This document shows positions 25,759 through 45,782 of a stretch of 64,000 bases of DNA, piece after piece; within the stretch, counting starts at the first letter, position 1, and each line of letters begins with the position of its first letter. The position numbers and the translations under genes are program-made. Origin of the DNA: Cyanidioschyzon merolae (lineage: Eukaryota); assembly GCA_000091205.1 (NCBI GenBank), contig AP006502.2; one strand, 5' to 3'. The notes beneath the pieces were generated by a model, which saw nothing but the letters and a program-made list of their open reading frames with translations, was not told the DNA's origin and did not search any database.

Positions 25759-26808
25759 TCAGCTCACGCGAATCGAGGTCGGATGTGCTGGTTCTTCCGC
25801 CTTCGCAGTTGTCGTCAGTCCGGCGCTTCGCGACGATCGCTCGCTACCAGCGATCATCTCAGAGCGCCTCACCATGGTGTACGCGAGGGAACCACCCAGC
25901 ACGATGAATATGCTGAGCAAGCCGAGAACCGTAATCGGATTTCGGTAGACGAGCAAGGCCAAGAAAGTCTGAGCGGCTGCTTTTGCCGTACACGAGACAT
26001 TGTGGGTGAGAGGGCTCGTCCATTTGATCTGCGCCGCCGCAGCAAAGCTGATGGCGATGCCCAGCATCCCACCTACACTCATAAGCGTCCAAAATAGAGG
26101 CGTTCTGGTCGTAGGGTTTTGAAAAATTTCCGATACCTCCCCGGTGAGCAGGATAAGCGGAACAAACAGCACAGTCGCATTCAGATTATTATACAGTGTC
26201 AGTTTCCATGGGTTATTATCGACATGCGCCAAGTTCTTTTTCACAAAAATTGAATTCAACGCAACGAAAAACGACGACGCTAGCCCGAACAGAACACCCA
26301 TGAGTGACCAGCGCACTTCCTGGTCGTTGCCGAGCACATACCCGAAAATCACCACGGCGAGGCAGACCATAGCTTCCAGGGACGTACGCTGGCCCAGAAT
26401 CAGAAAGTCAAGCAGCACGTTGAAAACTACCGTCAGTGACCTTGCAACCTGATAAAACGATACCTCGACGTACTTGAGGCATACATTGTTGGTAGCTGTC
26501 ATTGCGACAAATACTGCAGAGAGTGGAAGCATCTTCCATAAAACAGCACGTTGCACCTCGAAGCGAGGAACGCCACCAATACCCAGTACTCCCAGAACAT
26601 AGCACCCAACAACAGTGCAGAGACATTGGTACCAGGTCACGAAGAGTGGTGCGTCAACCCTGGTACCTGGTTGACTCAGCACGGCCTTATTCAGGAAGAC
26701 CATGGCGATGGAGATGATCCAGTACGACGCGACTGCTACCGCGATTCGAGTCGACTTGGTCGCCAAGTTCAACTTGTCATCTCCGTTGAAGATCGTTGCT
26801 TTGTCCAT
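25759..26808 (-). CDS. Nucleotide-sugar transporter (TPT/DMT superfamily, SLC35-like).
   Basis: About 10 predicted TM helices and two EamA-like halves; resembles the SLC35C/E family (KSTRIAVAVASYWIISIAMVFLNKAVL). The track start 26823 is TTG; ATG (MDKATIF...) is at 26808. Confidence 0.65.
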   Translation of the reverse strand: MDKATIFNGDDKLNLATKSTRIAVAVASYWIISIAMVFLNKAVLSQPGTRVDAPLFVTWYQCLCTVVGCYVLGVLGIGGVPRFEVQRAVLWKMLPLSAVFVAMTATNNVCLKYVEVSFYQVARSLTVVFNVLLDFLILGQRTSLEAMVCLAVVIFGYVLGNDQEVRWSLMGVLFGLASSFFVALNSIFVKKNLAHVDNNPWKLTLYNNLNATVLFVPLILLTGEVSEIFQNPTTRTPLFWTLMSVGGMLGIAISFAAAAQIKWTSPLTHNVSCTAKAAAQTFLALLVYRNPITVLGLLSIFIVLGGSLAYTMVRRSEMIAGSERSSRSAGLTTTAKAEEPAHPTSIRVS

Positions 26809-27029: not shown

Positions 27030-29505
27030 CAGCTTGGGTAGCGCATCGTAGGGGCATCGAGAGTAGTGTGCTGTCGAAACTGGGGCATTTGCTCTGTACC
27101 AACAGAAAGGTACTGGGAATCAGCGGTTTTCTCGATCGATTTAGCGGATGAAGATGCGTTTCATCGGGAAGGAAAAATGATTCTGCTGGAATAGATGGAA
27201 TACTTTGTCTGGTGTCCAGAGGAAATGTGTCGCTCGATTCCTCCGCTGAAAGAATGGACGACGAGTGCGTACCAGTGACCGAAGGAAAAGTTCCGGATAT
27301 CAAGTTGAAGCTGAAGTCTTTCCTCCGAGAGCGCTATCGCAAACGGATAAAGGCCTTCGTCTCGCGTATAAACTCATCCTGGGCTAGCGACTGGAAAAGG
27401 AAATCAACGCCCTTGCGAACCTCCGCATGCTAGGGATTCTCTCTGGAGACCCTTGACTCGGGTCACACGATCGTTTGTTTCCCTTGCTGCTATCACCGAA
27501 AAGACTTAGGTACAAGAAGGTCAAAGATTGGACGAGCGAAGAGGCCACAAACGCGCTCCCGTTCCCGGATAGGAACTTTTCTTTGCGCTCGCTGAATCGC
27601 CTCTACCGAGCGGAGCACCCGAGACCACGCCAGAGCCATTGGCTCGAGTCTCGTGTCGAGCCCAGGTGAACGCGATTGCCTCCGAGGCGGGCGAACGTAA
27701 GCACAAACCGGAATGCCGAAACATTGAGTGCCACCGAATGGGTATTTCTTTGGAATGACGCAGATGCCCGCAGAGCTTTCCATTTTGAGGGCGACCATAC
27801 AAACGCATCACATCAAGATGAATCTCGGGTGTCGTGCCGCCTGTTACATCCAGCTCATGCATGGAAACGCAACCAAGGGCGTCTCGAGAGAGACAGATAG
27901 AAACAGAGAGAAACACTTTCTCTGTGCCGCCGTCACTCGACCGTTCGAGGGTGTCGACGTTCTCGGCCCGCCAAGTGATATAGAACGGAAAGCGAAGATG
28001 AAACTGGCGGTCGAGATCGCCGAAGACTTGAAGAGACACATTGACTAGGGTTTGTCTCTGACTGAAGCATTGGTGCACGACGCGCTTGGCGCTTCCTCGA
28101 CCGCACAAACCTCTGGAAGAGGGTATAAACGCTTCGAATACTTGGCGAGAGCAGGATACAGAATGCAGAAGAGGCGAGCGCCACCCCAGGACGTTCTGTC
28201 TGCTGCCGACGAAGCGTGGCTTCACAACTTGTTACGTTCGTGTCAGTTACTTGGCCGTCATGGGCACTCTGCGACGCCACGGCGTTCTGAGAATGAAAGA
28301 AGTCGAAAGGAAATCGAGGCGGGAAATAAAGAGGAAGGTTTACCAGCAAAGCCTCCATATCGAAGCTGCCGAAGCAATGAACAGCCCAATAGGTTTCCGT
28401 TTTCTCTCGGATGGATACGATGTCAGTGTGCAACCGAGAGCATAGTCGAATATTTCGAGTCGAATGGGAAACGACGAAAGCCTCCTGTCTCTGAAACGCA
28501 ACCAAAAGCTCGTAGGCGTGGAGCCGGGTTTTCCGGACGCAGTCACCACTGCGGACTCGGGCGCCGGTTCAGAAACGCGTCATTTACACCAGCAGAAGAA
28601 AGGACTTCGAGGCGAGGATCGCGTACAGCGCGAGGAAAACGCTAAAAACAAGAATCAACAGACAGACATACGGACGGACGGACGACGTGACTGCTTGTCT
28701 CCGCATTTGCGAGATAACAGACTCGGAAGCTTCCGAAACTCGTCTGCGGCCGTATTTGAGCATTCTTCCGGAATGACTGCGAGACAGAGCTCGTTCTGGA
28801 TACCAGCGCCTGAGGTGCCATTCGTTCCACGTTCGACCAGAGGGCAATCCATGGATGTTCAGTCTCTTCTGGTACCGAGTGGCGAAGAGTCGGTCATCGA
28901 GCTCGGAGAGCGGGATGAGGGCGCCAAGCGTCCGATATCCCGTCATACGTCCAGTGCATGGGCAGCGATAACAAACAAGTCAACGGGAACGCCTGATGTG
29001 CGTATGGCGGACCTCTATGAATGCCGGACGTCGCTGCCGTGTTGGCGGTGCGCAAGTCGCCTCTCGAACACGAACGGAGCGACGACGTGGGTCATCACGA
29101 AGAATGAGTCGAGAGAAAGGAAAAGAAAGGAACTCGTACATGTCTCGGATTCACAGAGCACTGCACTGCAAGTGTGTCAGATGCGGGAGCAGCGCGGACT
29201 CTCCCAGCAGAGGTACCACATGGAACTGTGGCGACGACAACGCGTGCCACAACATCCTGGGGCTGCTGCAGGTCGGAATGCGAAGCAGTCGACAACCTGC
29301 ACCGTTTCGCCGCGCGATAAAAAATGAACATCCTGTGACTGAGGCAAAAAGCCGTGGCATCCTCGCAGACCAAAGCGTCTTGATGCGAAGTATGGGTTAC
29401 GTTACCTTGGATCTCGTATATAACGAGCATTATATTCTGATAAAGTCACGCGCGAGAAACTGACATGAAACGCCAATCCGACGATTTTTGCGTATGCATG
29501 TATGG
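27030..29505. repeat. IR1-L: left arm of a ~2.47-kb inverted repeat pair.
   Basis: Translated ORFs recur in the opposite orientation at 43,155-45,615, with at most one substitution in the inner half of the arm (28996..29463 vs 43192..43659 differ at one residue in 155 aa; 29095..29430 vs 43225..43560 are identical over 111 aa). The coordinate sum is constant at about 72,655. Boundaries were checked by reverse-complementing the ends. Confidence 0.9.
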
Positions 29506-29635
29506 CGCTTCCTGCCGCATTACGCGGCTGTTTGAAGACGGCAAACAGCACAACGCACAACGGACTCCGAAGACTGGTGTTTGATCAAGACCACTTATTC
29601 GTAGTTATGCGAGAAACGGTCTTTGACTCGAGAAA

Positions 29636-31483
29636 ATGCGCAAAGACGGTGTAGGAGACGCGAGGCAAGAGCACGCTCTGAAACGGCAGCGGTTGCTTGG
29701 TACACGGGCAAGTGAGCGCGAGATCGTCGAAAGTGATGTGCAGTTGGGCAACTCTTGTCTGGGCTTTTACCTCAACCAGATGGACGTCGTCGACGACGGG
29801 CGGAACGGTGCACATGCACCATACGTCGTGAGCCTCGCCGAGTTGTTCCAGGATGGGCGTCTGCTCCGGGGCTGCTCTTCAGGGACGTGCCCGGTGAGCC
29901 GCAGCGGGCCCTCGAGTGACGGTGCTGCTCCGCGGCGAGTCTCGCGGGAGCCGTTTCCGGGCATCACAGACGCACTGCTCGCAAACTTCGTCGCGGACTA
30001 TGACGCGAGCTTCTTCTTCGACCAGTGCCCGTCCCTGTACCAAACGACGGGACAGCTCGTATTGATCACCGGGGATGCACCGTCGCGGATAGCAGCGCTT
30101 CGAGGCTGGGTTCGGGATCACCTGCATGCCCTGGCTGAACGCACGCGAGTCCTAGGCGTATCGGGGCTGTTCAGCGGACGCGCTCCAAGTGCATGCGAAC
30201 AGGGTCCAGACTCGTTAAGTGCCCGCGTCGATGGCGCTGGTGGTGGTGGCGGCGGCGTCCATCACAGCAAGTTTATGATTCTACGCTTGCGAGACGATCG
30301 GGTTCGCCTCGTGATTCATACAAGTAACGACATCGCATACGACTGGTTTTTCAAATGTCAAGGAATATTTGCCGTGGATTTGCCGCTGCGCGGAGCTGGC
30401 AGCGCATCCCCGAACACCGGCTTTTGTGCGGATCTCCAGCAGTATTTGGGTGCGTATATCCGGGCCGGCGAACGGGCCCTGCACGGCGGCGTGACGAGCG
30501 CTCGACGTTTCGGGACGATGGTTGCCCCGGGAGATGCGGCGTCTCTCGTAGACGCTGTGTCGCATTTTCGTCGGCTCATGACGTGTTGCGATTACAGCGC
30601 TGTGGACGGAGTTCGTCTGGTATCATCGGTGCCCGGTTGGCATCGAATCTCGGGGCAGAGCAGAACGAGTCAAACGAGCCGGACCGCATCTCATGCTGTG
30701 TGTGCGTTCGGACATCTACGCTTAGCAAATCTGGTTGCTTCGAGCTTGCGCCATTGTACAGAGGCGGCCCGGCACCCGAATTCGCTCGCTTTCGTGTTGC
30801 AAGGCAGCTCGCTTTCGTCCGTGGATGCTCGTTGTCCAAGAGCCGCCTCGGAGACGCTTGCTCGTTACTGGCTTACATCGGAGCTCTTCCGATCGCTCTG
30901 TGGTGGTGATGGTGGTGGTGGTGGTGTTGGCGAGGAATCGGTGTTCGCGAAGCTTGCTGAGGGATCAGCTCAAGTGTATTTGGTATGGCCGACCAGAACT
31001 CAGGTCCTGACAAGCATCGTCGGCATCGACAGCGGCATGGGTTTGATTGCCCGCGCGCAAGCGTTTCTGGATCCAGAAATCCGTCAGCTACTGACTCGCT
31101 GGAATGCTGACTGGTGTGCGCGAACCAGTGTCATGCCGCACATGAAGACGATCAGTTGCTGGGACACTCGGACTGACCAATGTCTCTACTGCTACCTGGG
31201 CTCAGCGAATGTAACACCCGCTGCCTGGGGAATTACCCAGAAGCAGGGAAGTCTCCTGCGCTGCATGAACTGGGAGCTTGGTGTGCTGTTCACTAGCGGA
31301 TATCTGGCGACTCCCAAACTGTACAGAGAACTGCGACACTATGCAGACAGGTCGAATGAGCGAGAGCTCAACGAGCCGCGTTCTATTATCCTGCTCCCCC
31401 TGCCGTACACCCCAGGTGCTTGCGCCGGCGCTCGGTACCAGGAGCGTCTGGACCAACCCTGGTCCAGTGATGCCATGATCTGA
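29636..31483 (+). CDS. Tyrosyl-DNA phosphodiesterase 1 (Tdp1, PLD superfamily).
   Basis: Two HKN/HKD motifs: HSKFMILRL and HMKTISC...LGSANVTPAAWG (compare the Tdp1 GSANLSKAAWG motif). ATG at 29636. Confidence 0.75.
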   Translation: MRKDGVGDARQEHALKRQRLLGTRASEREIVESDVQLGNSCLGFYLNQMDVVDDGRNGAHAPYVVSLAELFQDGRLLRGCSSGTCPVSRSGPSSDGAAPRRVSREPFPGITDALLANFVADYDASFFFDQCPSLYQTTGQLVLITGDAPSRIAALRGWVRDHLHALAERTRVLGVSGLFSGRAPSACEQGPDSLSARVDGAGGGGGGVHHSKFMILRLRDDRVRLVIHTSNDIAYDWFFKCQGIFAVDLPLRGAGSASPNTGFCADLQQYLGAYIRAGERALHGGVTSARRFGTMVAPGDAASLVDAVSHFRRLMTCCDYSAVDGVRLVSSVPGWHRISGQSRTSQTSRTASHAVCAFGHLRLANLVASSLRHCTEAARHPNSLAFVLQGSSLSSVDARCPRAASETLARYWLTSELFRSLCGGDGGGGGVGEESVFAKLAEGSAQVYLVWPTRTQVLTSIVGIDSGMGLIARAQAFLDPEIRQLLTRWNADWCARTSVMPHMKTISCWDTRTDQCLYCYLGSANVTPAAWGITQKQGSLLRCMNWELGVLFTSGYLATPKLYRELRHYADRSNERELNEPRSIILLPLPYTPGACAGARYQERLDQPWSSDAMI

Positions 31484-32650
31484 TTCGAAATCGCTTGGTG
31501 GTGCTGTTCACGTCGCCAGCTGCGGCTCTGAATGCACCAACGCATATCATGATCTCCAGTGAGACATGTCGCCGCTCGACAAATAGACTCCAGGCGATCA
31601 GGCTTCGCAGTGGTCGATTTACGGCACTGCGCTTCTGTAGAGTGATAAGCGGCAAGTACTTCGTTTTCCAAGCACGTTCTACGTTTGCACGCTCAGACGA
31701 ATGGCCGGAACATCGGTATCATCGGACTGATCATGCATTGCATGCGCGAATGCACCTTGGACGAAACGTTCTACCTCCATGAAGCGACGTGCCGTGCCAG
31801 GATCCAGCGTGGCGAGTCGAAATGACAATGTCGGTGCATCAGCAACGATGACGCAACGCAGCAGCGGACGCGTTTCCGGTCCCGCTACCGGCGATAGTAA
31901 TCTTCCGCTAACGTGCACTCCAGCGCATACCGAAAGATTCCCAGGCTCATATCGCACACACGTGCTCGCTACTCGGATCGCTTCATCATACCTGATGGAT
32001 GCCTGATGGCTTGGGATTCCATTGCGGTTGGCCATGACTCCGTCCGGAGGTGCGTTCGCATCTGCATGGCAGCGAGTTTTCCATGTCTGGTCGTTGCTGA
32101 TACGAAAGCGTAATCGCTCTCGATCCAGTCATGACATTTGGAACGAATCCGCTGCTTATGTGCTGAGGAAATCGCGAAGACTAGTGAATGCGCGTGTGAT
32201 GAGCAATAAACGATACACTGAACGCAGCGATCGGGAACGATGGCGAGGGAGTGACGGCAGCGGAGAATCGATGCAGCCGCGCTAACACAGTAAACAACAT
32301 GACGAGCATCTCTGAAAGCGTACTACGCTCGCTTTACCAAAATTTACACTCTACCGATACCACGCACCACATCAAAGAGCTGCGTTCCACTCAACAGAAC
32401 CTCGTCTCTGCCAATAGAGCCGTCGTGTTCCGCTGCGTACTCGTATGAGACGAGTCACAACAGGAACTTGCGCGGTATCCGAATAGGTCATTGGTTTTTT
32501 TTCATCGCTAGATGCAATCGTTCCGCCCGAACTGCATCCGGATGCGGATATGTATGCCACCATCCCGCTGCTGTGCGATGCAGGCGATGCGATGCACGCG
32601 TCCCTACTCGGAGATCGCTGCCATCCAGCGTCACTGAGGTGTCCGGTTCG

Positions 32651-32678
32651 TGCGTGCGTGCGTGCGTGCGTGCGTGCC
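32651..32678. repeat. (TGCG)7 microsatellite.
   Basis: gtgcgtgcgtgcgtgcgtgcgtgcgtgc read directly. Confidence 0.9.
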
Positions 32679-33416
32679 AGGGTACAGGGTCGGGCGCACG
32701 CATCAGGCCGGTGAGGTTGGACATAGCGCCCATTCCTGGTACGCCTGCAGCGCTGATGCGCGAGTTTCGTTGACGAATGCCCGCGCGTCCATCGTGCTGT
32801 GCGTGTCTTCCGGTGCACCTGAGGCACCACTCAGAGACGCAAGTACCGGGTGCGTCTGAGGTATCTCTTCGTCATGTGCTGGTTGCAGTGGTCGATTTCC
32901 AGAGGCTTGCTCCTTGCGAGTCCATTCGGCCATGATTCCGACCGAGGTGCTGTTTGCTGATGTCCAAGGTCGACGGATTCGTCGCAGTTCCAGTCCGGGG
33001 ACGCTTTGCAGGTGATTGAAGGAGCGGGTTTGTGCCGATTGTATCCTATTCGCTGTGAAAGCGCCAGCTTGCCAGCGATGAAGCGCGGAAGCCCGGCTTG
33101 GCTATCATTCTCGTTTTGTGCAGTTCCAGAAAGAACAACGGTCATGTGAATCCAGTCCAGCACTGGATGCACCGACTTTCATGTGGACAATCGCGTGGGC
33201 GCTTCAGGATCGGCATTCGGATCTGATGATTTCTCGTCGGGCCGCGTGGATGCCAGACATTCCACATGCGCTCGTGCTCGCCATCCCGTGGCCGTCAGGA
33301 AGAGCGCGTCGCCAGTCGCGTCAGCACAGAGCGTGTCTAAACCCGAAAAACATCCAGACGCTCCGCTGATACGCACGATGGAGACCTGCTCGTATAGGGA
33401 GGCTGCGACGCCATCG

Positions 33417-35186
33417 CTAGTGGGGCTTTGCATCGCTCTGGCGTGCCGCTGAGGCCATCACGTCTGAATGTTCCGTCGAGAGGCGCTGCTGCGAAGCGAC
33501 TTGTTGCAGACGCTTCTCAATGAGTTGATTAAACTCCTCTTTGAAGGCGGAAAAGTTCTGCATTGACGTGCGCGCCACCCTGCGACAAAAATCAACGTCC
33601 GATGGTGCAATCACCACTGAGAGGCGCATTCGAGATACATCAATACCGAGGCGGCGCAGATAGAGTAAACGAGGTGCAATACGATCACGCAGCGAGTACG
33701 AGAAAACGGCCGGAAACTCGAGCACCTTCTTCGTATCCATGTTCATGACAGAGCGGAGGAATTTCAGTTTTGGTTGAATGTCTGTGTGGATATCATAAAC
33801 AAGCAGGGGTGGCAACCCACGAACCATCGTGGCGACATCTGCGATTCCCCAGTCGCGCAACAGTGCGACGACTGGCATTGCATTCCGGTCAATGTCCAGG
33901 GCCAGCAGTGCCGGGAACGCGCGGTACGCTTTGTTCAGATCGTCGGTAGTAAGGCCGAGATCGCGCAGGAACTCTGTGACGCGCTCAACTTGTGTGAGCG
34001 ATAAAGTCAGGCAGCGGGGATATGAGCGAACCATGGCCGCGATGCTCTTCGACGAAAGTTGGATACTTGCGTTCAGAAATTCTTCGATCGCTTGCATCTG
34101 TCCAGTGTCCGTTCGCAATATCTCGGGATGCGCGTAAACGATCTGGCGAATATACGGCGCAAAATTCAGTTCAAGGCAGGAACAGAGATGCTGCACAGCG
34201 GCTGCCGCAGTTTCCATTGGAAAATCAGTCAACAGCCAGGGTGCACGCGGAAACAAGCGTCGGAGAATATCGCTTGAAGGCTCAAAGCCGCAGCCCTGCG
34301 GCGGATTCTGGACCAGAAATGTAAGCATGGTCTCGAGCTGCTGGCAGTCGCAAAGACGACGCTGCGCCTGCTCCAAGAGCAGAAGCCGCACTAATTGGGC
34401 AGTGTCAAGACCAAAGCGTCGGAGCTGCCGGAGCTGTTCGCTCTGATTCTCTGGAATAGAGCACCATACTTCGAGGGGAATCATCGGATCCATCAAGAGG
34501 TTCCAGCATTCGGCAGCAGTGATGGAGCTCGCGGAAGATATTTGCTGTACAGCAGCTCCAAGTTGTTTCGCTGTCTCCACCTCGAGGCTCTTCATGTCTC
34601 TTTCGAGCAAAGCTTGCAAGTTCGTCGGTGTACATCCAAAAGCCGCCAAGTATTCTAGCGCGGAAGGCCAAGTTGCCGGAACCGGTTGCAACGCGATTTG
34701 TTCCACGATATCGCGTGCGAGGCCGTAGGCGCATAGGGCTCGAACAAAAGCTTCCGCGGTGCCGTGAGCAAGCTCTGGAGCGTTCGTGTTCCATGAATCT
34801 TCCCCTGATACCTGCGTAAAGATGCGCGACACCTCTGGACTCTCAACTGGAGTTTCCGTGGCCTGATTTTGTGCTTTCTCGTGAGTCTGTGGTTCCTTTG
34901 AAGGTGTTCCTCGCGACCGAGTCTTTAGAGCCACCGCAAAGCGTCCAATGCGCTTGGTCAAATTCTGGAAGAGGTCACGAGCGCGAGATGCTTGATTTTG
35001 GTCACTCTGGGGGCCACCATTGTTCCCGAAATGGCAGCATGTGTCGATGTACACGGATGCGCGGTGTGGTCGTTTGCGACTAACGGGAACAAGCGGCGCA
35101 TAGCAGCTACGAGCGCCTCGGGAACAGTCCCATCGCTGTAGAGGCACCCACAGCACAGTTGACGCAGCTGAGGCTCCTGAAAACAT
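33417..35186 (-). CDS. mTERF-domain protein (organellar transcription termination factor family).
   Basis: Tandem ~30-aa mTERF repeats (FLRDLGLTTDDLNKAYRAFPALLALDIDRNAMPVVALLRDWGI...GLPPLLVYDIHTDIQPKLKFL...EFPAVFSYSLRDRIAPRLLYLRRLGI). ATG confirmed at 35186. Confidence 0.65.
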   Translation of the reverse strand: MFSGASAASTVLWVPLQRWDCSRGARSCYAPLVPVSRKRPHRASVYIDTCCHFGNNGGPQSDQNQASRARDLFQNLTKRIGRFAVALKTRSRGTPSKEPQTHEKAQNQATETPVESPEVSRIFTQVSGEDSWNTNAPELAHGTAEAFVRALCAYGLARDIVEQIALQPVPATWPSALEYLAAFGCTPTNLQALLERDMKSLEVETAKQLGAAVQQISSASSITAAECWNLLMDPMIPLEVWCSIPENQSEQLRQLRRFGLDTAQLVRLLLLEQAQRRLCDCQQLETMLTFLVQNPPQGCGFEPSSDILRRLFPRAPWLLTDFPMETAAAAVQHLCSCLELNFAPYIRQIVYAHPEILRTDTGQMQAIEEFLNASIQLSSKSIAAMVRSYPRCLTLSLTQVERVTEFLRDLGLTTDDLNKAYRAFPALLALDIDRNAMPVVALLRDWGIADVATMVRGLPPLLVYDIHTDIQPKLKFLRSVMNMDTKKVLEFPAVFSYSLRDRIAPRLLYLRRLGIDVSRMRLSVVIAPSDVDFCRRVARTSMQNFSAFKEEFNQLIEKRLQQVASQQRLSTEHSDVMASAARQSDAKPH

Positions 35187-36851
35187 AACTAAGCACCAAC
35201 AACACCACCTTCGAATTGCGCGTGTACAGGTCAGCGTGGGTTAATCGTCTGGCACCCCTCCCCCATAGCGCCCCAGCAGCGAGAAGAAGCTCACCGAGCA
35301 GTTTCCCTTCGGCAGGAGCCCCGCCAAGCGCTGCACAGATCCGCTCGCCTCTGGCACCTCTGACGCCGCAGTCGGTGCCGTCGCCTGCGCACAGATCAGG
35401 CGTGACGCGTCGTCCGATCGGTGCAACGTTGACACCCGGGACGGGTGAACACGACGCCGGTGCACGCGACCTGCTGGAATCTGCAATGACGCTGGGATCG
35501 ATGCCGTCCCCCGGAAACCAAAAGCATCTGTATATCCTGGAGCGTCTAGGCATGCTCATCAATAAAGCATTAATAGTTGTCTTTTCCATGGCGCCGCGGT
35601 TCTTAGCTGGCGACATTCCTCGAACTGCGGCGCGTCGCCACCTGCACATCCCCGTTTTCGGGGAGTTTCTTGTCACATGGATACCTGCTAATCGAAGAGA
35701 TTGCGAACGATTTTGCTTCCAGGGCTAGCGAGAGAGAGTCGAATCTCACCAGAGACCACTCGCTTCGTTGGGGTCTCGAGTAGCCAGGCCACCGTTCTCA
35801 CTGGAAAGCATTTACCGCCAAGAAGAAATGGCAGTCTGGTTCATGGCATATTTCCTAGAATGGGGTCGTTTTGTGTACGGTCTACGTTCCCGTTAATCGT
35901 CTTGTGCATCAGGCTTTGTTTCTCTCTCTTCTTGTTTATCTGTAAAAGAGCAGACACCACCCAGTAACTGGCAACTAGTAAAATAATGTATTTCCCCTAT
36001 ACAGTAAGAAATGAAAGACAGGAAAGTTTTGCGCACGTTCGAAAGTTCAGGTTCAGGACGGAAGATCCCGCGAGCCGTATGATTCTATCGAGCTCGTGCC
36101 TCACGTGATCCACACTGGCGGGTGTTGTGGCGAGACCTGCGCACCTCGTCCGCAAAGCAGTCCTTTTCTGGAACGAGGAGTGCGCTGCCTGCGCCAAAGC
36201 GTCGTCCCGGTCGCTGAGGTCTCCCGACATGTCGTTTCCGGCCGCTGCCGGTTCCAGATCTATGAGAACGTCCGGCTGGATCCCGAATTGACATTGAAAT
36301 CCCAGCCCGTATCGAGTGCACCATACCTCGACCAGACGCCCCAGCGGTATGGGAAAGCCAATCCGTCTCCGTGCTGTATCGGCAACGGCGCGACTAGCGC
36401 TGAACCGGACGCTCCCAGCAGGCTCGGTGTCGGCGAAACGTACTAAATAACCAGCATCTTGTAGAGACTGTACGGGTGGTGGCAGCTGAAAGAATTCGGA
36501 GCTAGGGTACGAAATGATAGACGGTTTCCCACTTGCTGACGTCCATCTCGAAATCGCAGGGACCCCTGGTCCATTTTTTTCACTGACAAACCGTTTACAT
36601 AGGCCAGCGTTCTCCGATTAGGCGCATTTTTCTTTTCTTACTTTTTTCTGTGTTTTTTTTCAGTGCGCGGTGAGGTATCCATCAATCACCTACCTCCGAG
36701 TTACATTACACCCCTGGTCCATGCGAACCTCCTGCCGATCAGAAATCATGCGGACACGTCACCTGGCGGCGCTTCAGTTGAACACGTGTGCGTGTGCGCG
36801 CGAGGCTGCGTTTGACCGCGAGCGGCGGCGCGCGGCCGTAAATCCCGCACG

Positions 36852-38327
36852 ATGCGAACGTTTTTCCCCAGACGTGTTCGTGACTACAAGGCACGTTTCA
36901 AGATGCCAGGTTCGCAGCCCCTGCGCGTGGCTTGCATAGGTGCTGGATACGTAGGAGGACCAACCATGGCAGTCATTGCGGCAAAGACTCCTCCAGAGGC
37001 TGTACAAGTGCGGGTGCTTGACCTCTCAGCGGAGCGCATTGCCGCCTGGAACTCGGAGCGGCTTCCTATTTATGAACCTGGTCTCTCGGAGTTAGTCTTC
37101 GCTGCTCGCGGGCGAAACTTACACTTCTCCACAGCTATTGATGACGGCATCAAGTGGGCCGACATAATATTTGTGGCCGTAAACACACCAACGAAGGAGT
37201 GTGGTATCGGGGCGGGCGCAGCCGCTGACCTCACTTACGTCGAGCTGGCGGCTCGTCAGATTGCTGCTGCGGCCGATACACCCAAAATCGTCGTCGAAAA
37301 AAGCACTGTACCGATACGCACAGCGGAGGCTCTGAGCGCGATCCTCGAAGCGTGTGGCAGGACCTCGTTCGAGATCCTATCGAATCCGGAGTTCTTGGCA
37401 GAAGGCACTGCGGTACGCGATCTCTGTGAGCCTGATCGCGTGCTCATCGGCGGGGACCTGAAAACCGAGCGAGGGCGCCAAGCGCTCGAAGCCCTCGTCG
37501 AGCTCTACGCCTATTGGGTTCCTCGCGAGCGCATTCTCACGACGAATGTGTGGTCGAGCGAGTTGAGCAAACTCGTCGCGAACGCATTTCTGGCCCAGCG
37601 CGTGTCATCGATCAACTCCATTTCGGCGCTGTGTGAACTAAGCGGAGCACAAATCGACGAAGTCGCGCGCGCCGTAGGCCTCGACAGACGCATCGGACCT
37701 CGCTTTCTTCAGTGCAGCGTGGGCTTTGGCGGATCATGTTTCCAAAAAGACATCCTTAATCTTGTTTACCTGTGTGAGTCGTTTGGTCTGAATGTTGTCG
37801 CAGATTACTGGCGTTCGGTGATCGCCATTAACGATTGGCAAAAACAGCGATTCACGGCGCGAATTTTGCATAGCCTCTACAACACGGCCACAAACAAGAA
37901 AATCGCGATTCTCGGCTTTGCGTTCAAGAAGGACACGGCGGACACCCGAGAGAGCGCCGCCATTGATGTCTGCGGCAGTCTACTGCAGGAATGCGCGAAG
38001 CTGAGTATCTACGATCCCCAGGTGCCAGCCGAGCAGATCTGGTCTGATCTCACGCGAAGATGCCGTCGAACGCGCGACGAGCTCGCTGCCTATGTGACGC
38101 TCGCCGCTACTGCCGACGAGGCCGCCGCCGGCAGCCACGCAATTGTGATCCTCACCGAATGGGATGAGTTTCGAACCCTTGATTATTCGAAAATGTACAA
38201 GAGCATGTGCCGACCGGCATTTCTGTTCGACGGCAGGAGCGTCTGCGACCTCAAAGCGCTCTCCGAGATCGGATTTTTATGTTATGCGATTGGAAGCCCG
38301 GATGACTCGCGAATTCAACTTCGTTAG
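36852..38327 (+). CDS. UDP-glucose 6-dehydrogenase.
   Basis: NAD-binding VACIGAGYVGGPTMAVIA, catalytic GFGGSCFQKDILNL and C-terminal GFAFKKDTADTRESAA. ATG at 36852; the second Met at 36903 (MPGSQPLRVACIGAGYVGG) is a likely alternative start. Confidence 0.9.
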   Translation: MRTFFPRRVRDYKARFKMPGSQPLRVACIGAGYVGGPTMAVIAAKTPPEAVQVRVLDLSAERIAAWNSERLPIYEPGLSELVFAARGRNLHFSTAIDDGIKWADIIFVAVNTPTKECGIGAGAAADLTYVELAARQIAAAADTPKIVVEKSTVPIRTAEALSAILEACGRTSFEILSNPEFLAEGTAVRDLCEPDRVLIGGDLKTERGRQALEALVELYAYWVPRERILTTNVWSSELSKLVANAFLAQRVSSINSISALCELSGAQIDEVARAVGLDRRIGPRFLQCSVGFGGSCFQKDILNLVYLCESFGLNVVADYWRSVIAINDWQKQRFTARILHSLYNTATNKKIAILGFAFKKDTADTRESAAIDVCGSLLQECAKLSIYDPQVPAEQIWSDLTRRCRRTRDELAAYVTLAATADEAAAGSHAIVILTEWDEFRTLDYSKMYKSMCRPAFLFDGRSVCDLKALSEIGFLCYAIGSPDDSRIQLR

Positions 38328-38401
38328 CGCGTACGCAGCGACTTGACTGGATCTATGGCGCTGATGCGCTCCCTGTCATGAACCCAGTAAAACCACATTT
38401 G

Positions 38402-39076
38402 TTAGAACGGTGCGATACTGACGCGCATGAGCTCCACGTCGTAAGTTAGCGTTTCATTTGGCGGAACGAGGCAGCCTTGGCCCTCAATGCAGACGCCCCG
38501 CTCTCCGAAGCCTAGTTCACTGGGCACGATTATTCGACGTTTGCCACCAGTTTTCATGGTTTCGATTCCCTTCTCCACGCCCGGCACCATCTGCTTCTTA
38601 CCAAAAATGAATGCCAGCGGCTTTCGCCCTTTTGCAGTTGTGTTATCGAAAATCGTGCCATCCGATAGGTACCCAATGTAGTTGATGACCACGAGGTCGC
38701 CGTCCTTCGGGCTAGCTCCAGTGCCTTCCTTGTAGTCGCGATAGAGCACACCGGATGGATCGCGCACGAACTTTGAGAGGTCCAATTTTTGAGGAGTCGT
38801 AGTGCCTGCCGCTCGTGCGCCTTCCAAGCCCGGAAGCCGGAGCCACGCACTCACGCCAGCCATAAATAAAAGGCGTTCTAGCAACTGACGTCGGGTCAGC
38901 GATAGAGCCAGCGGCAGGGCTGCTCGCAAAGTCGTTCTTCCGTTGCTACCAGCCGACAGGAAGCAACGGCTACGATGCTTTCGCGGCAACTCCTTTCCAG
39001 AACGAGTCCTCTGCAGGTTCCTAGCGTTGAGGGCGACTCCGTGCCCAGGCACAGGTTGCACACCGACGAAAACCAT
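38402..39076 (-). CDS. FKBP-type peptidyl-prolyl cis-trans isomerase with a transit peptide plus twin-arginine (lumenal-type) signal.
   Basis: FKBP core GDLVVINYIGYLSDGTIFDNT...FIFGKKQMVPGVEKGIETMKTGGKRRIIVPSELGFG. RRQLLERLLF followed by a hydrophobic stretch. ATG at 39076. Confidence 0.8.
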   Translation of the reverse strand: MVFVGVQPVPGHGVALNARNLQRTRSGKELPRKHRSRCFLSAGSNGRTTLRAALPLALSLTRRQLLERLLFMAGVSAWLRLPGLEGARAAGTTTPQKLDLSKFVRDPSGVLYRDYKEGTGASPKDGDLVVINYIGYLSDGTIFDNTTAKGRKPLAFIFGKKQMVPGVEKGIETMKTGGKRRIIVPSELGFGERGVCIEGQGCLVPPNETLTYDVELMRVSIAPF

Positions 39077-39289
39077 AGCACTCCGTGTTCCTGCTCGAAA
39101 CGGCTGCAGCAGTTGCAGGACAGTGCGTCTTCAAGGATGCTGCTGGTGCGCACATGCGTCAGCGGCCGATCGCCTACACCCACCAGATGGGACGGTTTGT
39201 TTGTTATCGAATATGTGCCGCTATCTTTCGCTCCTGAATTAGGTTTTGCGTTGAAGGATCGATGCTTTGGACTTGAGCATGATGGAAGG

Positions 39290-40370
39290 GCTCGTGGATT
39301 GATCCGTAGTTTTAGAATTTTCGGTTGTCGTTTTTGCTTGCTCATCTAGACTCTCTTCTGCGGGACGTCGTTCTGACCCCGGCATCGAGATGATTCGCGA
39401 CGCACGCGAACAAGGATTCGTAAACTAAATAACAGGATCACCCGGTTCGGAAGTGCAAGCGTCCATCCTTTTACTGTTTCTTAAGTGAAACGTATTCATA
39501 GCACGCATTCTTCATGTTTTCGATCGTTCTGTTTCAAGGTGACTCATGGGCGCTGCAATGCACGCCAGTGAATTGACGTCGAAAACAGCATCTCACAAGT
39601 TCATGCCAAAACTTGACAACATATATGATGTGGAATCATCTATTCCGTTCGAAAAACAAATCAGCCTCTCCTTGTGGCTAACGATGAAACCGCATACGAC
39701 AGCAGTAGAATTCCGCAGACGGGATTCGCTCCTGAAGGCTGACGTCTCTTTGATTCATACGGAAAAGGAGCCCGGACTCTGACGAACTTCAGTGATCGCA
39801 GCGATCGACTCCACTGGTGCATGCGTCACCGCTTGGCGTGAGGCGAGCGCAGACGGATCGAACATTCTCGGTGTACTCCCCAGTCTCGATTTTCTTTCGG
39901 TCCTTGTTTCATCATAGACAAGATACCATTCCACAAATCCTCGATCGAATGGAGCAGCGTGTGCTTGCGTTTTCAGCAGGCAGATTACTCACTCGGAAAC
40001 CGCCCTAGAGAAGCCCGTGACCATCGAGCGATGCACCTGGCGCGGAATCCGGCGCTGGCATCGAGGGGGACCTTCTGTTCTCGTCAAGGGCATGAACCAG
40101 GCGCCAAACCGAGCGGTCACACGTCACAGGATAGCCCCTGGAGCACGTGAACCGGATACATCTGGGAAGACCTGGCCGCAGTCAACCGTCACAACAGCGA
40201 ATCACGGATCGGGGCTGTATACCAGGAGCATGTGGATTGCATACGAAGCGTAGATCACAACGACGGCATGTGCACGAACCGCACTGAATACAGCTGGGGG
40301 CAGCGAAATCGGGACGTGACTGCTGACACGAACAATCCTCGACTGCTGAAAACGGAGCTCGATGGATACG
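39290..40370. repeat. IR2-L: left arm of a 1.08-kb inverted repeat pair.
   Basis: ORFs 39546..39782, 39959..40150, 40017..40253 and the C-terminal part of 40182..40604 recur inverted at 51,290-52,370 with 1-2 substitutions each. The coordinate sum is constant at 91,658. Boundaries were checked by reverse-complementing the ends. Confidence 0.9.
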
Positions 40371-40838
40371 ATTGAGCGGCTTATTTATAGTCGTAGATAA
40401 GAGAGCGAGGAAGAGAAAGCATTCCCCGATGTTTTTTCTCAAAGACTGGTGTCCATAACTGTGTGAAAAGACCGGAACCTTGCTGTATACGTCCGAGTTG
40501 CGTAGAAGACCCTGTTCCATTTTATTCTGAAATGAGTGTCTCGTCATGATGCGACTCACACATAGAATCGCAATGATGGAAAACGTCCGCCATAGCGACT
40601 GCAAAAATCGCTCGACATGCTCCTAGCGGTGCAACGAGGAGCCATCCGACCAGATGACGTTTGAGCGAACTCGACGCCGGAGATACGCCACCCAACATGC
40701 ACCAGAGTCGACGCCTGCGACCTGCTCAGGACCGCGTTCAGGACATTGGCTCGCGTAGGATACGGTGTGAAGATGCTGGCGTCCGTGGTGTCGGTCAGAG
40801 GCTCCGACTCTCCGCCTTGTACTCAGCGAATAGGTTCC

Positions 40839-41285
40839 TTAAGATTGGTCTCCTGCGCCGCGACGATAGTTCGGAATCGGGGGCGTCTCAGTTGGAATCC
40901 AACGCGGCCGCTTTGGAACACTCAGGTCGGGCTCCTTAGCCAGAACTTGCTGATCGGGCGGTAGCTCTGCAACCGCCGCGTCTCGAGAGCGCGCCAGTCG
41001 CAGCAGGCGTTGCTGTAGCATAACCTCACGACGCAAGCACTGTTTATTGTACGCCCGGGCGAGTTCCGCGCCACGAGCGAGCACTTCCTCGCTCAGCTCG
41101 AGCGTTACTTTTTCGGGTGCTAACGCTGCTGTAAGTACGTCCGGCGGCTCTGCGCGTTTCTCCGTGCGGCCACTCGGTACTCGCTTCGGCGTATCGAGCG
41201 CTGGTCGACTCCCAAAGAACCAACGCTTGCAACCAGGACACAATCGTATCCTGCTCATGAGACCGATCAATTCTCTACTATGCAC
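40839..41285 (-). CDS. Hypothetical protein (148 aa). No recognisable domain.
   Basis: Only an ORF in a gene-sized gap. Weak. Confidence 0.25.
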   Translation of the reverse strand: MHSRELIGLMSRIRLCPGCKRWFFGSRPALDTPKRVPSGRTEKRAEPPDVLTAALAPEKVTLELSEEVLARGAELARAYNKQCLRREVMLQQRLLRLARSRDAAVAELPPDQQVLAKEPDLSVPKRPRWIPTETPPIPNYRRGAGDQS

Positions 41286-41835
41286 AGGAGACTGAAGCCG
41301 CCGCCACCGCCGGGCTACCGGTAACCACTTTTTTGGCGAAAAACCGGTGTCTGGGGCGCTCGTGTGGAACCCAGCGAGTACCGCCTCTCAGCACAAAAAT
41401 GGCGAAGCGCATCATGGTATCGTATCGACGCCGTCCATAGACGCTCGACACCTGCAGTACGAGCCAGTTACTAGAGCTCCCTCGCTTTATTGGAACACCG
41501 CTCTGCTGCCGGGAGCAGGTAGGAGCTCTCGAGAGAGCGCTGTACCCGGCACGCTGATAGCCGATAGTCTTTGCGAGTTACGTTGATCGAGCACTTGCGC
41601 TGCACGGCAACGCCGTTCTGCAACGTGGAGAAGGTAGAGGCTCCCTGGGGCAGCGCTGAGTTTCGGCACGCCATTCTCAGTAGTCTTCGCACTTTTGGAG
41701 ACTGGCGGTTCGGTTTATTTTCCAAGGTTATAAAAAGTCGCAGGGCAGCAGCTTTCCTGTGTCCAAGTTCAAGGGTTTCATGGCTGAGGGCAGTCTCTGC
41801 AAACATTCGGTTCATCGAAACTCACGAGCGACGCC

Positions 41836-42510
41836 ATGAACGGCAGAAAAAGTATTCTTGTCTACGAAAAATCCAGCGCTCCGCTCTTGCGCGTGCTCGG
41901 AGCGGTCGGTGTCTTTCAGGTCGCTGCCTGGGCTGCTTTCGGTGCGGTATCGTGGCGGAATAGCGGCGCGTCGACGAAAGCAACCGCTGCTACTAGTCAA
42001 GACACGGAGGAGGACGCGCCTGGGACGAGAAGCGTCACGGAAAACACGCACAGTCCCTCGAGTCGTTATCAGACATGGTGGCCTGCAGGTGGCCTGCTCG
42101 TTTCGGTTCTTTTCCTGCAGCTGATGAGTTTTTACGCCAAACGGAACGTGAAAAGCATCAGGTTTGTCGGAGACTTTGCGGAAAGAGCTCGTATCGTCAC
42201 TCACTCTCTCTTCCGTTCGGGCCGGGAAGATCAACCAAGTCGGTTGGTGCTGGAGGTTCCGACCTTTCAACTACATGCCAGCGCTACTGGGCGCACTGCT
42301 ACTAAAGAAGACCTCGTGACATTCGGCATTCGCGGATACAACTCGTTTTTCCAGATTGACCGAAAGCGGGGGCAAATCTACGATGCAACTTTGTTGAATG
42401 CGCTGCTTGAGAAAGGCGGTCAAGGCGTGATGCAAGCTGCTGCACAGCGGATGAAAACTTCGACGCCAAAACGGACGCCGTCAGCTCGCGAGCGCGCAGT
42501 CAACAGTTAG
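41836..42510 (+). CDS. Hypothetical membrane protein (224 aa) with two predicted TM helices.
   Basis: ATG ORF with hydrophobic segments (LLRVLGAVGVFQVAAWAAFGAV; WWPAGGLLVSVLFLQLMSFY). No domain recognised. Confidence 0.3.
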   Translation: MNGRKSILVYEKSSAPLLRVLGAVGVFQVAAWAAFGAVSWRNSGASTKATAATSQDTEEDAPGTRSVTENTHSPSSRYQTWWPAGGLLVSVLFLQLMSFYAKRNVKSIRFVGDFAERARIVTHSLFRSGREDQPSRLVLEVPTFQLHASATGRTATKEDLVTFGIRGYNSFFQIDRKRGQIYDATLLNALLEKGGQGVMQAAAQRMKTSTPKRTPSARERAVNS

Positions 42511-43154
42511 GCATGTCCCGGGGGCTCGTCGTTTGACGCATGGCCTGGATGCGCCTCGAAACCAAGATATTCATAGCATCGAAGGCTCCAGGCACGCCCT
42601 CAAATGTCCGACACGCTGTGAAATGTTGCGCTCGTCCTGTTGGGATGATCTCGTGACACCAAGTGCCACGGGGACCAGCGTTCTTTCATGGCATCGCTGC
42701 TGCGTATGGGACGGACCAAAATATCGAGCGTACCGCTCAAGGGTCTGCGCGTCTAGCTCCGCGACTCTTGACAGGAAGCGAGACCTGTACCGGCATGCGG
42801 TTGTGCAGCGCTTCCAGCGGACGGTTCTGCAACGTTCAAGGGTAGTTTCGAAGACCAGGGCTATACTTGAAACAGTTGGTGCTTCGTGTAAGCACTGGGA
42901 TGGTTCGTAGTTTCCAGCGCCGCATGCACCCGCTGTCTCCGGGCGGAGCATGATACCGGTCCGATTTCTGCACATCGTCTGGAACACCTTTGCTGCACTT
43001 TTGGAGACGCTTAATTCATGTTCATTCGAGGAAGAACAATTGGGCATCCTGCCTAAACACCGTTTAGTACGCAAAACTAGCATTCATAGCGAACTCACAC
43101 GGACGCTTGACTCTGGAGTTTCGTGTTTCCCGATTTTCACTAGGCGACTGCACA

Positions 43155-45615
43155 CAGGCATACGCAAAAATCGTCGGATTGGCGTTTCATGTCAGTTTCT
43201 CGCGCGTGACTTTATCAGAATATAATGCTCGTTATATACGAGATCCAAGGTAACGTAACCCATACTTCGCATCAAGACGCTTTGGTCTGCGAGGATGCCA
43301 CGGCTTTTTGCCTCAGTCACAGGATGTTCATTTTTTATCGCGCGGCGAAACGGTGCAGGTTGTCGACTGCCTCGCATTCCGACCTGCAGCAGCCCCAGGA
43401 TGTTGTGGCACGCGTTGTCGTCGCCACAGTTCCATGTGGTACCTCTGCTGGGAGAGTCCGCGCTGCTCCCGCATCTGACACACTTGCAGTGCAGTGCTCT
43501 GTGAATCCGAGACATGTACGAGTTCCTTTCTTTTCCTTTCTCTCGACTCATTCTTCGTGATGACCCACGTCGTCGCTCCGTTCGTGTTCGAGAGGCGACT
43601 TGCGCACCGCCAACACGGCAGCGACGTCCGGCATTCATAGAGGTCCGCCATACGCACATCAGGCGTTCCCGTTGACTTGTTTGTTATCGCTGCCCATGCA
43701 CTGGACGTATGACGGGATATCGGACGCTTGGCGCCCTCATCCCGCTCTCCGAGCTCGATGACCGACTCTTCGCCACTCGGTACCAGAAGAGACTGAACAT
43801 CCATGGATTGCCCTCTGGTCGAACGTGGAACGAATGGCACCTCAGGCGCTGGTATCCAGAACGAGCTCTGTCTCGCAGTCATTCCGGAAGAATGCTCAAA
43901 TACGGCCGCAGACGAGTTTCGGAAGCTTCCGAGTCTGTTATCTCGCAAATGCGGAGACAAGCAGTCACGTCGTCCGTCCGTCCGTATGTCTGTCTGTTGA
44001 TTCTTGTTTTTAGCGTTTTCCTCGCGCTGTACGCGATCCTCGCCTCGAGGTCCTTTCTTCTGCTGGTGTAAATGACGCGTTTCTGAACCGGCGCCCGAGT
44101 CCGCAGTGGTGACTGCGTCCGGAAAAACCCGGCTCCACGCCTACGAGCTTTTGGTTGCGTTTCAGAGACAGGAGGCTTTCGTCGTTTCCCATTCGACTCG
44201 AAATATTCGACTATGCTCTCGGTTGCACACTGACATCGTATCCATCCGAGAGAAAACGGAAACCTATTGGGCTGTTCATTGCTTCGGCAGCTTCGATATG
44301 GAGGCTTTGCTGGTAAACCTTCCTCTTTATTTCCCGCCTCGATTTCCTTTCGACTTCTTTCATTCTCAGAACGCCGTGGCGTCGCAGAGTGCCCATGACG
44401 GCCAAGTAACTGACACGAACGTAACAAGTTGTGAAGCCACGCTTCGTCGGCAGCAGACAGAACGTCCTGGGGTGGCGCTCGCCTCTTCTGCATTCTGTAT
44501 CCTGCTCTCGCCAAGTATTCGAAGCGTTTATACCCTCTTCCAGAGGTTTGCGCCGTCGAGGAAGCGCCAAGCGCGTCGTACACCTATGCTTCAGTCAGAG
44601 ACAAACCCTAGTCAATGGGTCTCTTCAAGTCTTCGGCGATCTCGACCGCCAGTTTCATCTTCGCTTTCCGTTCTATATCACTTGGCGGGCCGAGAACGTC
44701 GACACCCTCGAACGGTCGAGTGACGGCGGCCCAGAGAAAGTGTTTCTCTCTGTTTCTATCTGTCTCTCTCGAGACGCCCTTGGTTGCGTTTCCATGCATG
44801 AGCTGGATGTAACAGGCGGCACGACACCCGAGATTCATCTTGATGTGATGCGTTTGTATGGTCGCCCCTCAAAATGGAAAGCTCTGCGGGCATCTGTGTC
44901 ATTCCAAAGAAATACCCATTCGGTGACACTCAATGTTTCGGCATTCCGGTTTGTGCTTACGTTCGCCCGCCTCGGAGGCATTCGCGTTCACCAGCGCTCG
45001 ACACGAGACTCGAGCCAATGGCTCTGGCGTGGTCTCGGGTGCTCCGCTCGGTAGAGGCGATTCAGCGAGCGCAAAGAAAAGTTCCTATCCGGGAACGGAA
45101 GCGCGTTTGTGGCCTCTTCGCTCGTCCAATCTTTGACCTTCTTGTACCTAAGTCTTTTCTGTGATAGCAGCAAGGGAAACAAACGATCGTGTGACCCGAG
45201 TCAAGGGTCTCCAGAGAGAATCCTTAGCACGCGGAGGTTCGCAAGGGCGTTGATTTCCTTTTCCAGTCGCTAGCCCAGGATGAGTTTATACGCGAGACGA
45301 AGGCCTTTATCCGTTTGCGATAGCGCTCTCGGAGGAAAGACTTCAGCTTCAACTTGATATCCGGAACTTTTCCTTCGGTCACTGGTACGCACTCGTCGTC
45401 CATTCTTTCAGCGGAGGAATCGAGCGACACATTTCCTCTGGACACCAGACAAAGTATTCCATCTATTCCAGCAGAATCATTTTTCCTTCCCGATGAAACG
45501 CATCTTCATCTGCTAAATCGATCGAGAAAACCGCTGATTCCCAGTAACTTTCTATTGGTACAGAGCAAATGCCCCAGTTTCGACAGCACACTACTCTGGA
45601 TGCCCCTACGAGCGG
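43155..45615. repeat. IR1-R: right arm of the ~2.47-kb inverted repeat pair, reverse complement of 27,030-29,505.
   Basis: See IR1-L. The outer part (44.8-45.6 kb) is more diverged, about 5% amino-acid differences in shared ORFs plus frameshifting indels. The inner part is about 99% identical. Confidence 0.9.
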
Positions 45616-45782
45616 CGCGTCGCCTCGATTCGAACACCACCTGTCCCCCGTTCTTTTGTCGTGCAAACCTTGAATAGTTTTCTTCTACGTTTCTAGGATT
45701 CAACCTAGTTAAGTTTTTGTTTCAGGTGCACTTGGAAGCAATGACCTGTGTCGTTTCGTGACCCACAGTGCGGACCTATGCA

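Follow-up and report, generated by a model that had tools for sequence, protein, structure and literature searches.

The inverted arms and their surroundings

The window analyzed here is a 64,000-nucleotide stretch of contig AP006502.2 from Cyanidioschyzon merolae (assembly GCA_000091205.1), and the subject is a pair of long inverted repeats within it, the left and right arms, which enclose a spacer of 13.6 kb. It will be argued that the arms are in all likelihood decayed copies of a Fanzor1-type element. Their limits (Table 1) were set by a repeat scan and by comparing the window with itself by blastn. The two arms align over 2,465 bp at 98.9% identity with three single-base indels (bit score 4405, E = 0), and runs without any difference reach 678 nt. 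In a global alignment that takes in 60 nt beyond either end of the arms, the homology ends abruptly at both ends.

An earlier reading of the window, made from the letters alone and called here the sequence-only reading, had already seen the inverted pair and a spacer of about 13.65 kb, and the self-comparison bears out both. The outer limits it gave (27030-45615, with arms of about 2,475 bp) are too wide by 1 to 12 nt. It overlooked a second inverted pair, a transposon relic inside the spacer, and a palindrome of 1.9 kb, all considered below. Each arm lies between divergently transcribed genes, the left arm between those for TPT and Tdp1 and the right arm between a 170-aa open reading frame (ORF) and the gene for PHO4. 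The genes of the window are free of introns, and GC content is about 55%.

Table 1. Features of the inverted-repeat locus, in coordinates of the 64-kb window
Feature	Position	Strand	Description
Left arm	27042-29504	+	Predicted complete 2.46-kb Fanzor1-type element; 5' end outward, 3' end toward spacer
Right arm	43151-45614	-	Second copy of the left-arm element in opposite orientation; 3' end toward spacer
Fanzor1 gene relic, left arm	27746-29316	+	Predicted RuvC and zinc-finger TNB; family-HMM positions 134-628, in three phases (2, 0, 1)
Fanzor1 gene relic, right arm	43339-44865	-	Same predicted gene relic as in left arm
In-frame stop	28443-28445	+	Between HMM positions 348 and 359; separates same-frame fragments 28062-28442 and 28446-29324
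RuvC-I motif	28518-28532	+	GVEPG where relatives have GVDPG; catalytic Asp to Glu
Homogenized tract	28106-29497 (left-arm coordinates)	+	Spacer-proximal 1.4 kb
Spacer	29505-43150		13,646 bp; six genes, TE-N2_CMe-like relic (35945-36383), one copy of second inverted pair
TPT (triose-phosphate/nucleotide-sugar transporter family), left flank	25759-26808	-	PF03151; transcribed away from left arm
Tdp1	29636-31483	+	Pfam Tyr-DNA_phospho on orthologous metagenome genes
mTERF	33417-35186	-	Pfam mTERF on orthologous metagenome genes
UDP-glucose dehydrogenase (UGDH)	36852-38327	+	Pfam UDPG_MGDP_dh on orthologous metagenome genes
FKBP	38402-39076	-	Pfam FKBP_C on orthologous metagenome genes
TMEM70-like	41836-42510	+	PF06979; one of two ORFs previously called hypothetical
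Unknown ORF, 170 aa	42571-43083	-	
PHO4-type phosphate transporter, right flank	45768-46805	+	PF01384; transcribed away from right arm
Second inverted pair, copy B	39296-40366	+	Inside spacer; unclassified
Second inverted pair, copy B'	51292-52362	-	Outside right arm

The same locus in wild populations

Parts of the locus recur in about 30 contigs from hot-spring metagenomes (several JGI samples, ENA MEGAHIT assemblies, and Logan), retrieved through exact-protein look-ups with the genes of the window. In unique DNA the contigs are about 99.2% identical to the window. This divergence of about 0.8% is similar to the 0.71% reported between C. merolae 10D and the Yellowstone strain MS1 (PMC13353863), and the contigs are probably from wild relatives of the C. 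merolae-type nuclear chromosome represented by the window.

All four junctions between an arm and its surroundings are found amongst them: that between the TPT flank and an arm in L015 and L021-L030, that between the PHO4 flank and an arm in L001 and L008-L013, that between an arm and Tdp1 in L001-L006 and L013-L017, and that between an arm and the TMEM70 side in L008, L009, L011, L019, and L021. One contig, L008, is colinear with positions 53888-41000 of the window and so spans the right arm and a copy of the second inverted pair. Variants specific to one arm recur in other strains.

The arms as relics of a Fanzor1-type gene

The sequence-only reading found no recognizable protein domain in any frame of the arms and took them for anonymous noncoding DNA. 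The first statement stands as far as Pfam is concerned, since no family is called on the three forward frames of the arm or on a translation stitched together from them. A phmmer comparison of the stitched translation with the sequences in PDB gave chance matches only. A word-indexed search for homologs of a 287-aa ORF in the arm returned nothing beyond its own cluster, P0001, and an exact look-up found the ORF in no protein record. Nor did tblastn with the published Fanzor1 proteins CMe-1, CRe-1, CRe-4, CVu-1, and VCa-1 find anything significant in the arms.

Then there are the pieces that catch the eye. Three stretches in the frames of the arm, GVEPG, TSLPCWRC, and TTWNCGDDNACHNIL, resemble motifs of TnpB and Fanzor proteins. 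A hidden Markov model (HMM) made from the C-terminal halves of eight published Fanzor1 proteins matches the same pieces weakly, colinearly, and in the right order, with a chain score of 19.1 in the left arm and 16.2 in the right. None of 1,500 dinucleotide shuffles scored above 14.9, and none of 34 other window segments above 5.7. On its own this result is suggestive but insufficient. What decided the matter was a full HMMER scan of 1.84 billion protein representatives with the 287-aa ORF as query, which returned the proteins P0063, P0065, P0067, and P0069 at E values of 3e-6 to 3e-4, together with P0064, P0068, the ORF's own cluster, and some repetitive giants. Pfam recognizes PF07282 (Cas12f1-like TNB) in the first four, not in P0064 or P0068.

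Turned back on the window by tblastn, these relatives hit the arms at E values down to 1.9e-25 and otherwise only the CMe-1A palindrome described below, apart from one short match by P0068 at 36574-36741. The lowest value belongs to P0065, residues 312-671 of which align with 28155-29228 and residues 174-218 with 27746-27880. An HMM of eight relatives, made without any arm sequence, finds single-frame fragments of the arm at E values of 7e-19, 3e-16, 3e-10, and 3e-7 and matches the stitched translation at 2e-44; the pieces of the left-arm relic lie at 27746-27886, 28080-28433, 28464-29147, and 29077-29316. The alignment of the arm with its relatives is colinear over about 320 residues at about 30% identity and carries, in order, the motifs DGYxVS, VGVDPGFxDxVT, SYSSxxYY, YRxMRF, VVGFGDWxGGAxSPISRRTSG, IDExRTSxTCxxCxxRLxNM, SRVHKVLHC, GxTWNRDVNASxNIL, and RPxxFxR. 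The cysteines of the zinc finger (CxxC...CxxC) are kept, in conceptual translation only: the arm has TSLPCWRC and HCKCVRCG where the relatives have TSVTCHGC and LHC...C. As for the relatives themselves, P0067 matches the solved Fanzor of Spizellomyces punctatus (8GKH) at 2.6e-12 and the Chlamydomonas Fanzor1 CRe-1 at 5e-17.

As judged by this chain of homology, the arms carry the relic of a Fanzor1-type gene, that is, one for a eukaryotic TnpB-like, RNA-guided RuvC nuclease, and so they are not anonymous DNA but copies of an element with a decayed nuclease gene. The sequence-only reading had allowed that an intact transposase or a structure with long terminal repeats inside the arms would turn them into a mobile element. 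In spirit that is what has come about, for an element has been found in them; the letter is another matter, since its gene is broken and a Fanzor protein is no transposase.

The closest intact relatives, about 30% identical, are a protein from the green alga Tetrabaena socialis (PNG99576.1) and metagenome proteins. One of the latter, P0071 (688 aa, with PF07282), is encoded on contigs L032-L035, where its neighbors resemble genes of giant viruses: an RNA polymerase Rpb1 with an intein, ankyrin-repeat proteins, and a Collar domain. A Fanzor lineage of the arm type may, on this hint, be common to algae and the large DNA viruses that infect them.

Decay of the nuclease gene

Neither arm carries a live gene in any strain seen: there are frameshifts, the stop codon, and the replacement of the catalytic aspartate in RuvC-I by glutamate. 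In addition, the WNRD motif of RuvC-III contains an insertion (WNCGDD). The longest ORF of an arm is 287, 210, or 184 aa, depending on the strain, owing to 1-bp indels and to 4-bp slippage in a run of (ACAG)n(ACGG)n. No strain seen has an intact gene.

A third copy and the limits of the element

A further copy of the arm, 67-72% identical to it, occupies positions 24-2520 of the metagenome contig L031 (JGI 3300057139, 3,966 nt), between flanks unrelated to those of either arm. It retains the RuvC-I motif as GIDPG and is broken by an insert of 100 nt. Its homology with the left arm spans 27070-29502, compared with arm limits of 27042-29504, so that the 3' ends agree within 2 nt and the 5' ends within 28 nt. 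The comparison at the 5' end is limited by the contig, which stops 23 nt beyond the match, and the test of both termini depends on this one additional copy.

What was duplicated in the window is the gene plus a leader of about 260 nt and a tail of about 180 nt. Since this unit ends where the copy in L031 ends, the unit is the element itself. Such limits are what transposition would give, while there would be no reason to expect a random segmental duplication to stop at these points, and I infer that the copies arose by transposition.

CMe-1A relics and the second inverted pair

A 2013 survey listed CMe-1 as the only Fanzor1 family of C. merolae (Bao and Jurka, PMC3627910). The published CMe-1A consensus was compared with the window by blastn at a word size of 9. 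It matches 61672-63625 at 87-88% identity, 8-414 (minus strand) at 77%, and 35945-36383 (minus strand) at 71%; beyond these there are short pieces at 36584-36709 and two matches of 15-18 nt at the level of chance. The first region is an imperfect palindrome of 1.9 kb, in which two 3' halves of CMe-1A, each truncated on its 5' side (consensus positions about 2158-3169), are set head to head around a center of about 30 nt. The halves are about 85% identical to one another, and CMe-1 protein matches at 85%. The other two regions correspond to the 5' part of CMe-1A, i.e. the nonautonomous TE-N2_CMe, the one at 35945-36383 falling between mTERF and UGDH. A nearby piece at 36574-36675 is 88% identical to the 100-nt insertion within the L031 copy.

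Could the arms be CMe-1A as well? They come from the same host lineage and belong to the same protein superfamily, and copies of CMe-1A are found elsewhere in the window. Within the arms, however, blastn finds no match to the consensus DNA and tblastn none to CMe-1 protein, and comparison of profiles finds the two families unrelated (hhalign probability 0.3%). The arms have kept the CxxC...CxxC zinc finger, which CMe-1 lacks. In the absence of DNA or profile similarity, and with the zinc finger retained, the arms therefore constitute a family separate from CMe-1A.

The second inverted pair consists of copies of 1,071 nt that are 98.9% identical without gaps. One copy is inside the spacer and the other beyond the right arm, so the two pairs are interleaved (A B A' B'), and recombination within either pair would turn the other into direct repeats. 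These copies match no protein in any Fanzor set, no Rfam family, and no part of CMe-1A. A weak hit with the string NRDVTADTN was discarded as insignificant (6.5 bits). The six spacer contigs L001-L006 all break 120-184 nt inside a copy of this pair.

Gene conversion between the arms

The arms of the window differ at 26 places. The outer 1.06 kb (27045-28105) has 20 of these, the spacer-proximal tract (28106-29497) just 3. They can be compared with metagenome arms assigned by their flanks to the left (L015) or to the right (L008, L009, and L011). Between left and right arms within the metagenome lineage there are 3-5 differences in the inner 1,392 nt and 22 in the outer 1,060 nt (the latter for L015 versus L008). 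Between orthologous arms, window versus metagenome, there are 12-17 inner and 15-19 outer differences. In the inner tract, then, paralogs within a lineage are closer than orthologs between lineages, which is to say that the arms have evolved in concert. Inner states common to both arms of the window and absent from all metagenome arms occur at 28178, 28780, and 29475, and as an ACGG at 28670-28673. These patterns show that gene conversion has acted on the inner tract in both lineages since they split. The view of the sequence-only reading that the arms are a substrate for homologous recombination is borne out by the concerted evolution of the inner 1.4 kb.

The outer part has another history. 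There, distances between paralogs and between orthologs are alike, and about six sites that distinguish one arm from the other (27059, 27103, 27676, 27731, an indel after 27788, and 27925) do so in both lineages, so the outer part has gone mostly unconverted. Two arm-specific sites at the inner end are likewise common across lineages. Homogenization has been limited to the 3' 1.4 kb nearest the spacer independently in the window and metagenome lineages.

Genes of the spacer and side observations

The sequence-only reading listed Tdp1, mTERF, UDP-glucose dehydrogenase, FKBP, and two ORFs in the spacer, and Pfam matches on orthologs agree. Beside these genes the spacer holds the TE-N2_CMe-like relic. 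Its conclusion that the whole is not a composite transposon remains sound, as there is no transposase, the genes of the elements are dead, and the spacer is met in one context only, with unique flanks.

Two observations concern variation in the genes of the window. A tandem repeat of 87 nt, in about four copies that are 91-93% identical, lies at 18757-19102 inside the ORF at 17593-19191 (minus strand). The protein is laforin-like (CBM20 plus dual-specificity phosphatase), and the repeat encodes a 29-aa unit of its N-terminal part. Orthologs on metagenome contigs measure 329 to 506 aa, a spread suggestive of variation in copy number. Contig L014 (Logan SRR29605750) lacks about 455 nt from the middle of Tdp1 (window 30419-30873), between two stretches encoding runs of glycine, making the product 460 aa instead of 615. 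This gap may not be a real allele, for the assembler could have jumped from one short repeat to another.

Alternative explanations

I propose that the arms are two decayed Fanzor1 copies in opposite orientation, subject to ordinary homologous recombination, rather than a switch built for the purpose, and I hold this with good though not complete confidence. Several points weigh against it. The four ends of the arms show neither target-site duplications nor terminal inverted repeats, and the same is true of the four ends of the second pair; a GCGC shared by the right outer and left inner flanks is too short to mean anything. I know of no transposase for the Fanzor1-type family, and transposition is therefore a deduction from the limits of the unit and not an observation. 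Two near-identical copies and one old one are few for a mobile family. The translation of the arm has no Pfam or PDB match of its own, its membership in the family being transitive, through metagenomic relatives. Finally, most of the lesions in the gene are common to both arms, so that either a dead copy was mobilized, or the lesions were spread by conversion, or the second copy did not arise by transposition. The missing termini at least have a precedent, for in CMe-1A terminal inverted repeats are likewise absent and target-site duplications could not be determined (Bao and Jurka 2013, PMC3627910).

The last of those choices amounts to supposing that an element already dead was copied in inverted orientation by a segmental duplication, through fold-back or template switching during repair, with no second round of transposition. 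Nearly all lesions of the relic being common to the arms, the want of a target-site duplication, and the existence of just two close copies, 13.6 kb apart, would all follow. A repair event, however, would be expected to bring flanking DNA with it, whereas the duplicated unit stops at the ends of the element, at most 2 nt (3') and 28 nt (5') away from those of the L031 copy, and the shared lesions are explicable as well by gene conversion or by mobilization of a defective copy. I regard such a duplication as unlikely. It is less likely still that the arms are kept for the sake of the host, whether they serve the four flanking genes as bidirectional promoters or regulatory modules or give rise to a noncoding RNA, even though both arms lie between divergently transcribed genes and an arm is present in all strains sampled. 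Between lineages the arm has diverged (12-17 differences per 1,392 nt) at least as much as the unique DNA around it (about 0.8%), and there is thus no sign of purifying selection on it; indels, moreover, are tolerated. A search of Rfam, at the gathering threshold for the whole window and at E values up to 1 for the arm, and a scan for tRNAs gave no match. The regulatory or noncoding RNA function offered as an alternative by the sequence-only reading thus finds no support, neither an Rfam or tRNA match nor a sign of constraint. Least credible of all is an artefact of assembly, in which one arm was misjoined or the repeat was collapsed or duplicated. Apart from the risk that attends any repeat, nothing speaks for it. 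All four junctions appear in several independent assemblies, from different samples and assemblers, L008 runs colinearly across the right arm, and arm-specific variants are common to several strains, which together exclude a misassembly for practical purposes. The sequence-only reading did well to treat the structure as genuine.

Does the spacer flip?

The sequence-only reading suggested that recombination between the arms could flip the enclosed segment back and forth. Some contigs have the phase of the window, joining PHO4 through an arm to the TMEM70 side (L008, L009, and L011) or TPT through an arm to Tdp1 (L015, with only 67 nt of flank). Others have the flipped phase, joining PHO4 through an arm to Tdp1 (L001, 18.2 kb, and L013) or, reciprocally, TPT to the TMEM70 side (L021, 13.6 kb). 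Short reads cannot phase a repeat of 2.46 kb, and the two orientations give the same assembly graph.

If natural populations or clones did contain the 13.6-kb block both ways round, as a product of crossovers between the arms and with no dedicated recombinase, one would expect what is seen: both reciprocal pairs of junctions among public contigs. Gene conversion shows that the arms pair, and L021 switches from left-type to right-type variants within the homogenized inner tract, where a true crossover would be expected. Rearrangements, including one inversion, separate 10D from MS1 (PMC13353863), with no link between the position of that inversion and this locus. Against this, with a common k-mer graph and runs of identity as long as 678 nt, the exit that a short-read contig takes from the arm may be arbitrary. 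Most contigs break at the arm, and no sample has both phases. In L013 the switch of variant type comes within the arm's first 60 nt, and L001 shows a mosaic pattern, both more like traversal of a graph (or an earlier conversion) than like inversion; taken together, the variant patterns in L001, L013, and L021 do not separate real inversion from the choice of an assembler. What stands of the earlier suggestion is the substrate for recombination and the existence of contigs in both phases; the inversion itself is unproven, as short reads cannot phase the arms. I count flipping in nature as a possibility that falls well short of an even chance.

A model for the locus

The proposed course of events is simple. 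Two copies of the element would have come to lie in opposite orientation within two intergenic regions 13.6 kb apart, where the neighboring genes are transcribed away from them. They are long and about 99% identical, and for that reason the ordinary homologous recombination of the cell acts on them; within each lineage, gene conversion leaves few differences in the 1.4 kb next to the spacer. Should the arms cross over, the 13.6-kb block would be inverted. Since every gene would keep the arm-proximal sequence that lies upstream of it, the inversion would be nearly neutral.

A bolder version can be offered, tentatively, and I think it rather doubtful. Recent work has established that wild Cyanidioschyzon populations in Yellowstone are diploid and sexual. 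The arms might maintain a real polymorphism for the 13.6-kb inversion in those populations, and the homogenization of the inner tract might reflect directional recombination set off from the 3' ends of the elements, for example by breaks or stalled forks. If so, the locus would be a tractable natural case of structural variation driven by transposon relics in one of the most compact genomes of any free-living eukaryote.

Even without the bolder version, the locus adds a second lineage of Fanzor1, one that retains the zinc finger, beside the CMe-1 already described for C. merolae (PMC3627910), which is of use in annotating the genome. It also gives direct sequence evidence, in a very compact genome, of ectopic gene conversion between dispersed repeats, and a clean natural example of it. 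There is a practical warning too, that short-read assemblies of the locus report either orientation.

Comparison with known systems

The arms fit well with Fanzor1 elements as described (Bao and Jurka 2013; 8GKH). Their relic corresponds to a protein of about 630-690 aa with a C-terminal half made up of RuvC and zinc-finger (TNB) regions, in which GVDPG, (D/E)E-x-RTS-x-x-C-x-x-C, and W-N-R-D-x-N-A-x-x-N-I follow each other in the right order and with the right spacing. An element of this kind measures about 2.5-3 kb, with short noncoding ends, and, as reported for C. merolae CMe-1A, terminal inverted repeats are absent. The differences are that the gene in the arms is dead, that no Rfam match points to a guide RNA (omega/fRNA) of the kind encoded at the 3' end, that only three copies have been found, and that the closest intact relatives are about 30% identical.

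The sequence-only reading compared the arrangement with the inverted repeats of plastids and with the yeast 2-micron plasmid. The likeness is one of geometry: inverted arms around a single-copy segment, where a crossover would give two isomers. It goes no further. The present arms, on a nuclear chromosome, contain no rRNA or other functional genes, no junction was found to depend on orientation, and nothing points to an effect of orientation on expression. There is no FLP-like recombinase; none of the genes in the spacer and flanks (Tdp1, mTERF, UGDH, FKBP, TMEM70, TPT, and PHO4) encodes a domain of a site-specific recombinase.

Another comparison is with inverted low-copy repeats that mediate nonallelic homologous recombination, such as the palindromes of sex chromosomes with their gene conversion from arm to arm. 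Both have long inverted arms of about 99% identity around a unique spacer, both evolve in concert, and in both inversion is possible. The arms described here differ in being copies of a transposon and not amplicons bearing genes, and in having been homogenized in the inner 1.4 kb only. The locus fits best among dispersed repeats, which are subject to ectopic gene conversion and now and then to inversion, and it is not a new kind of system.

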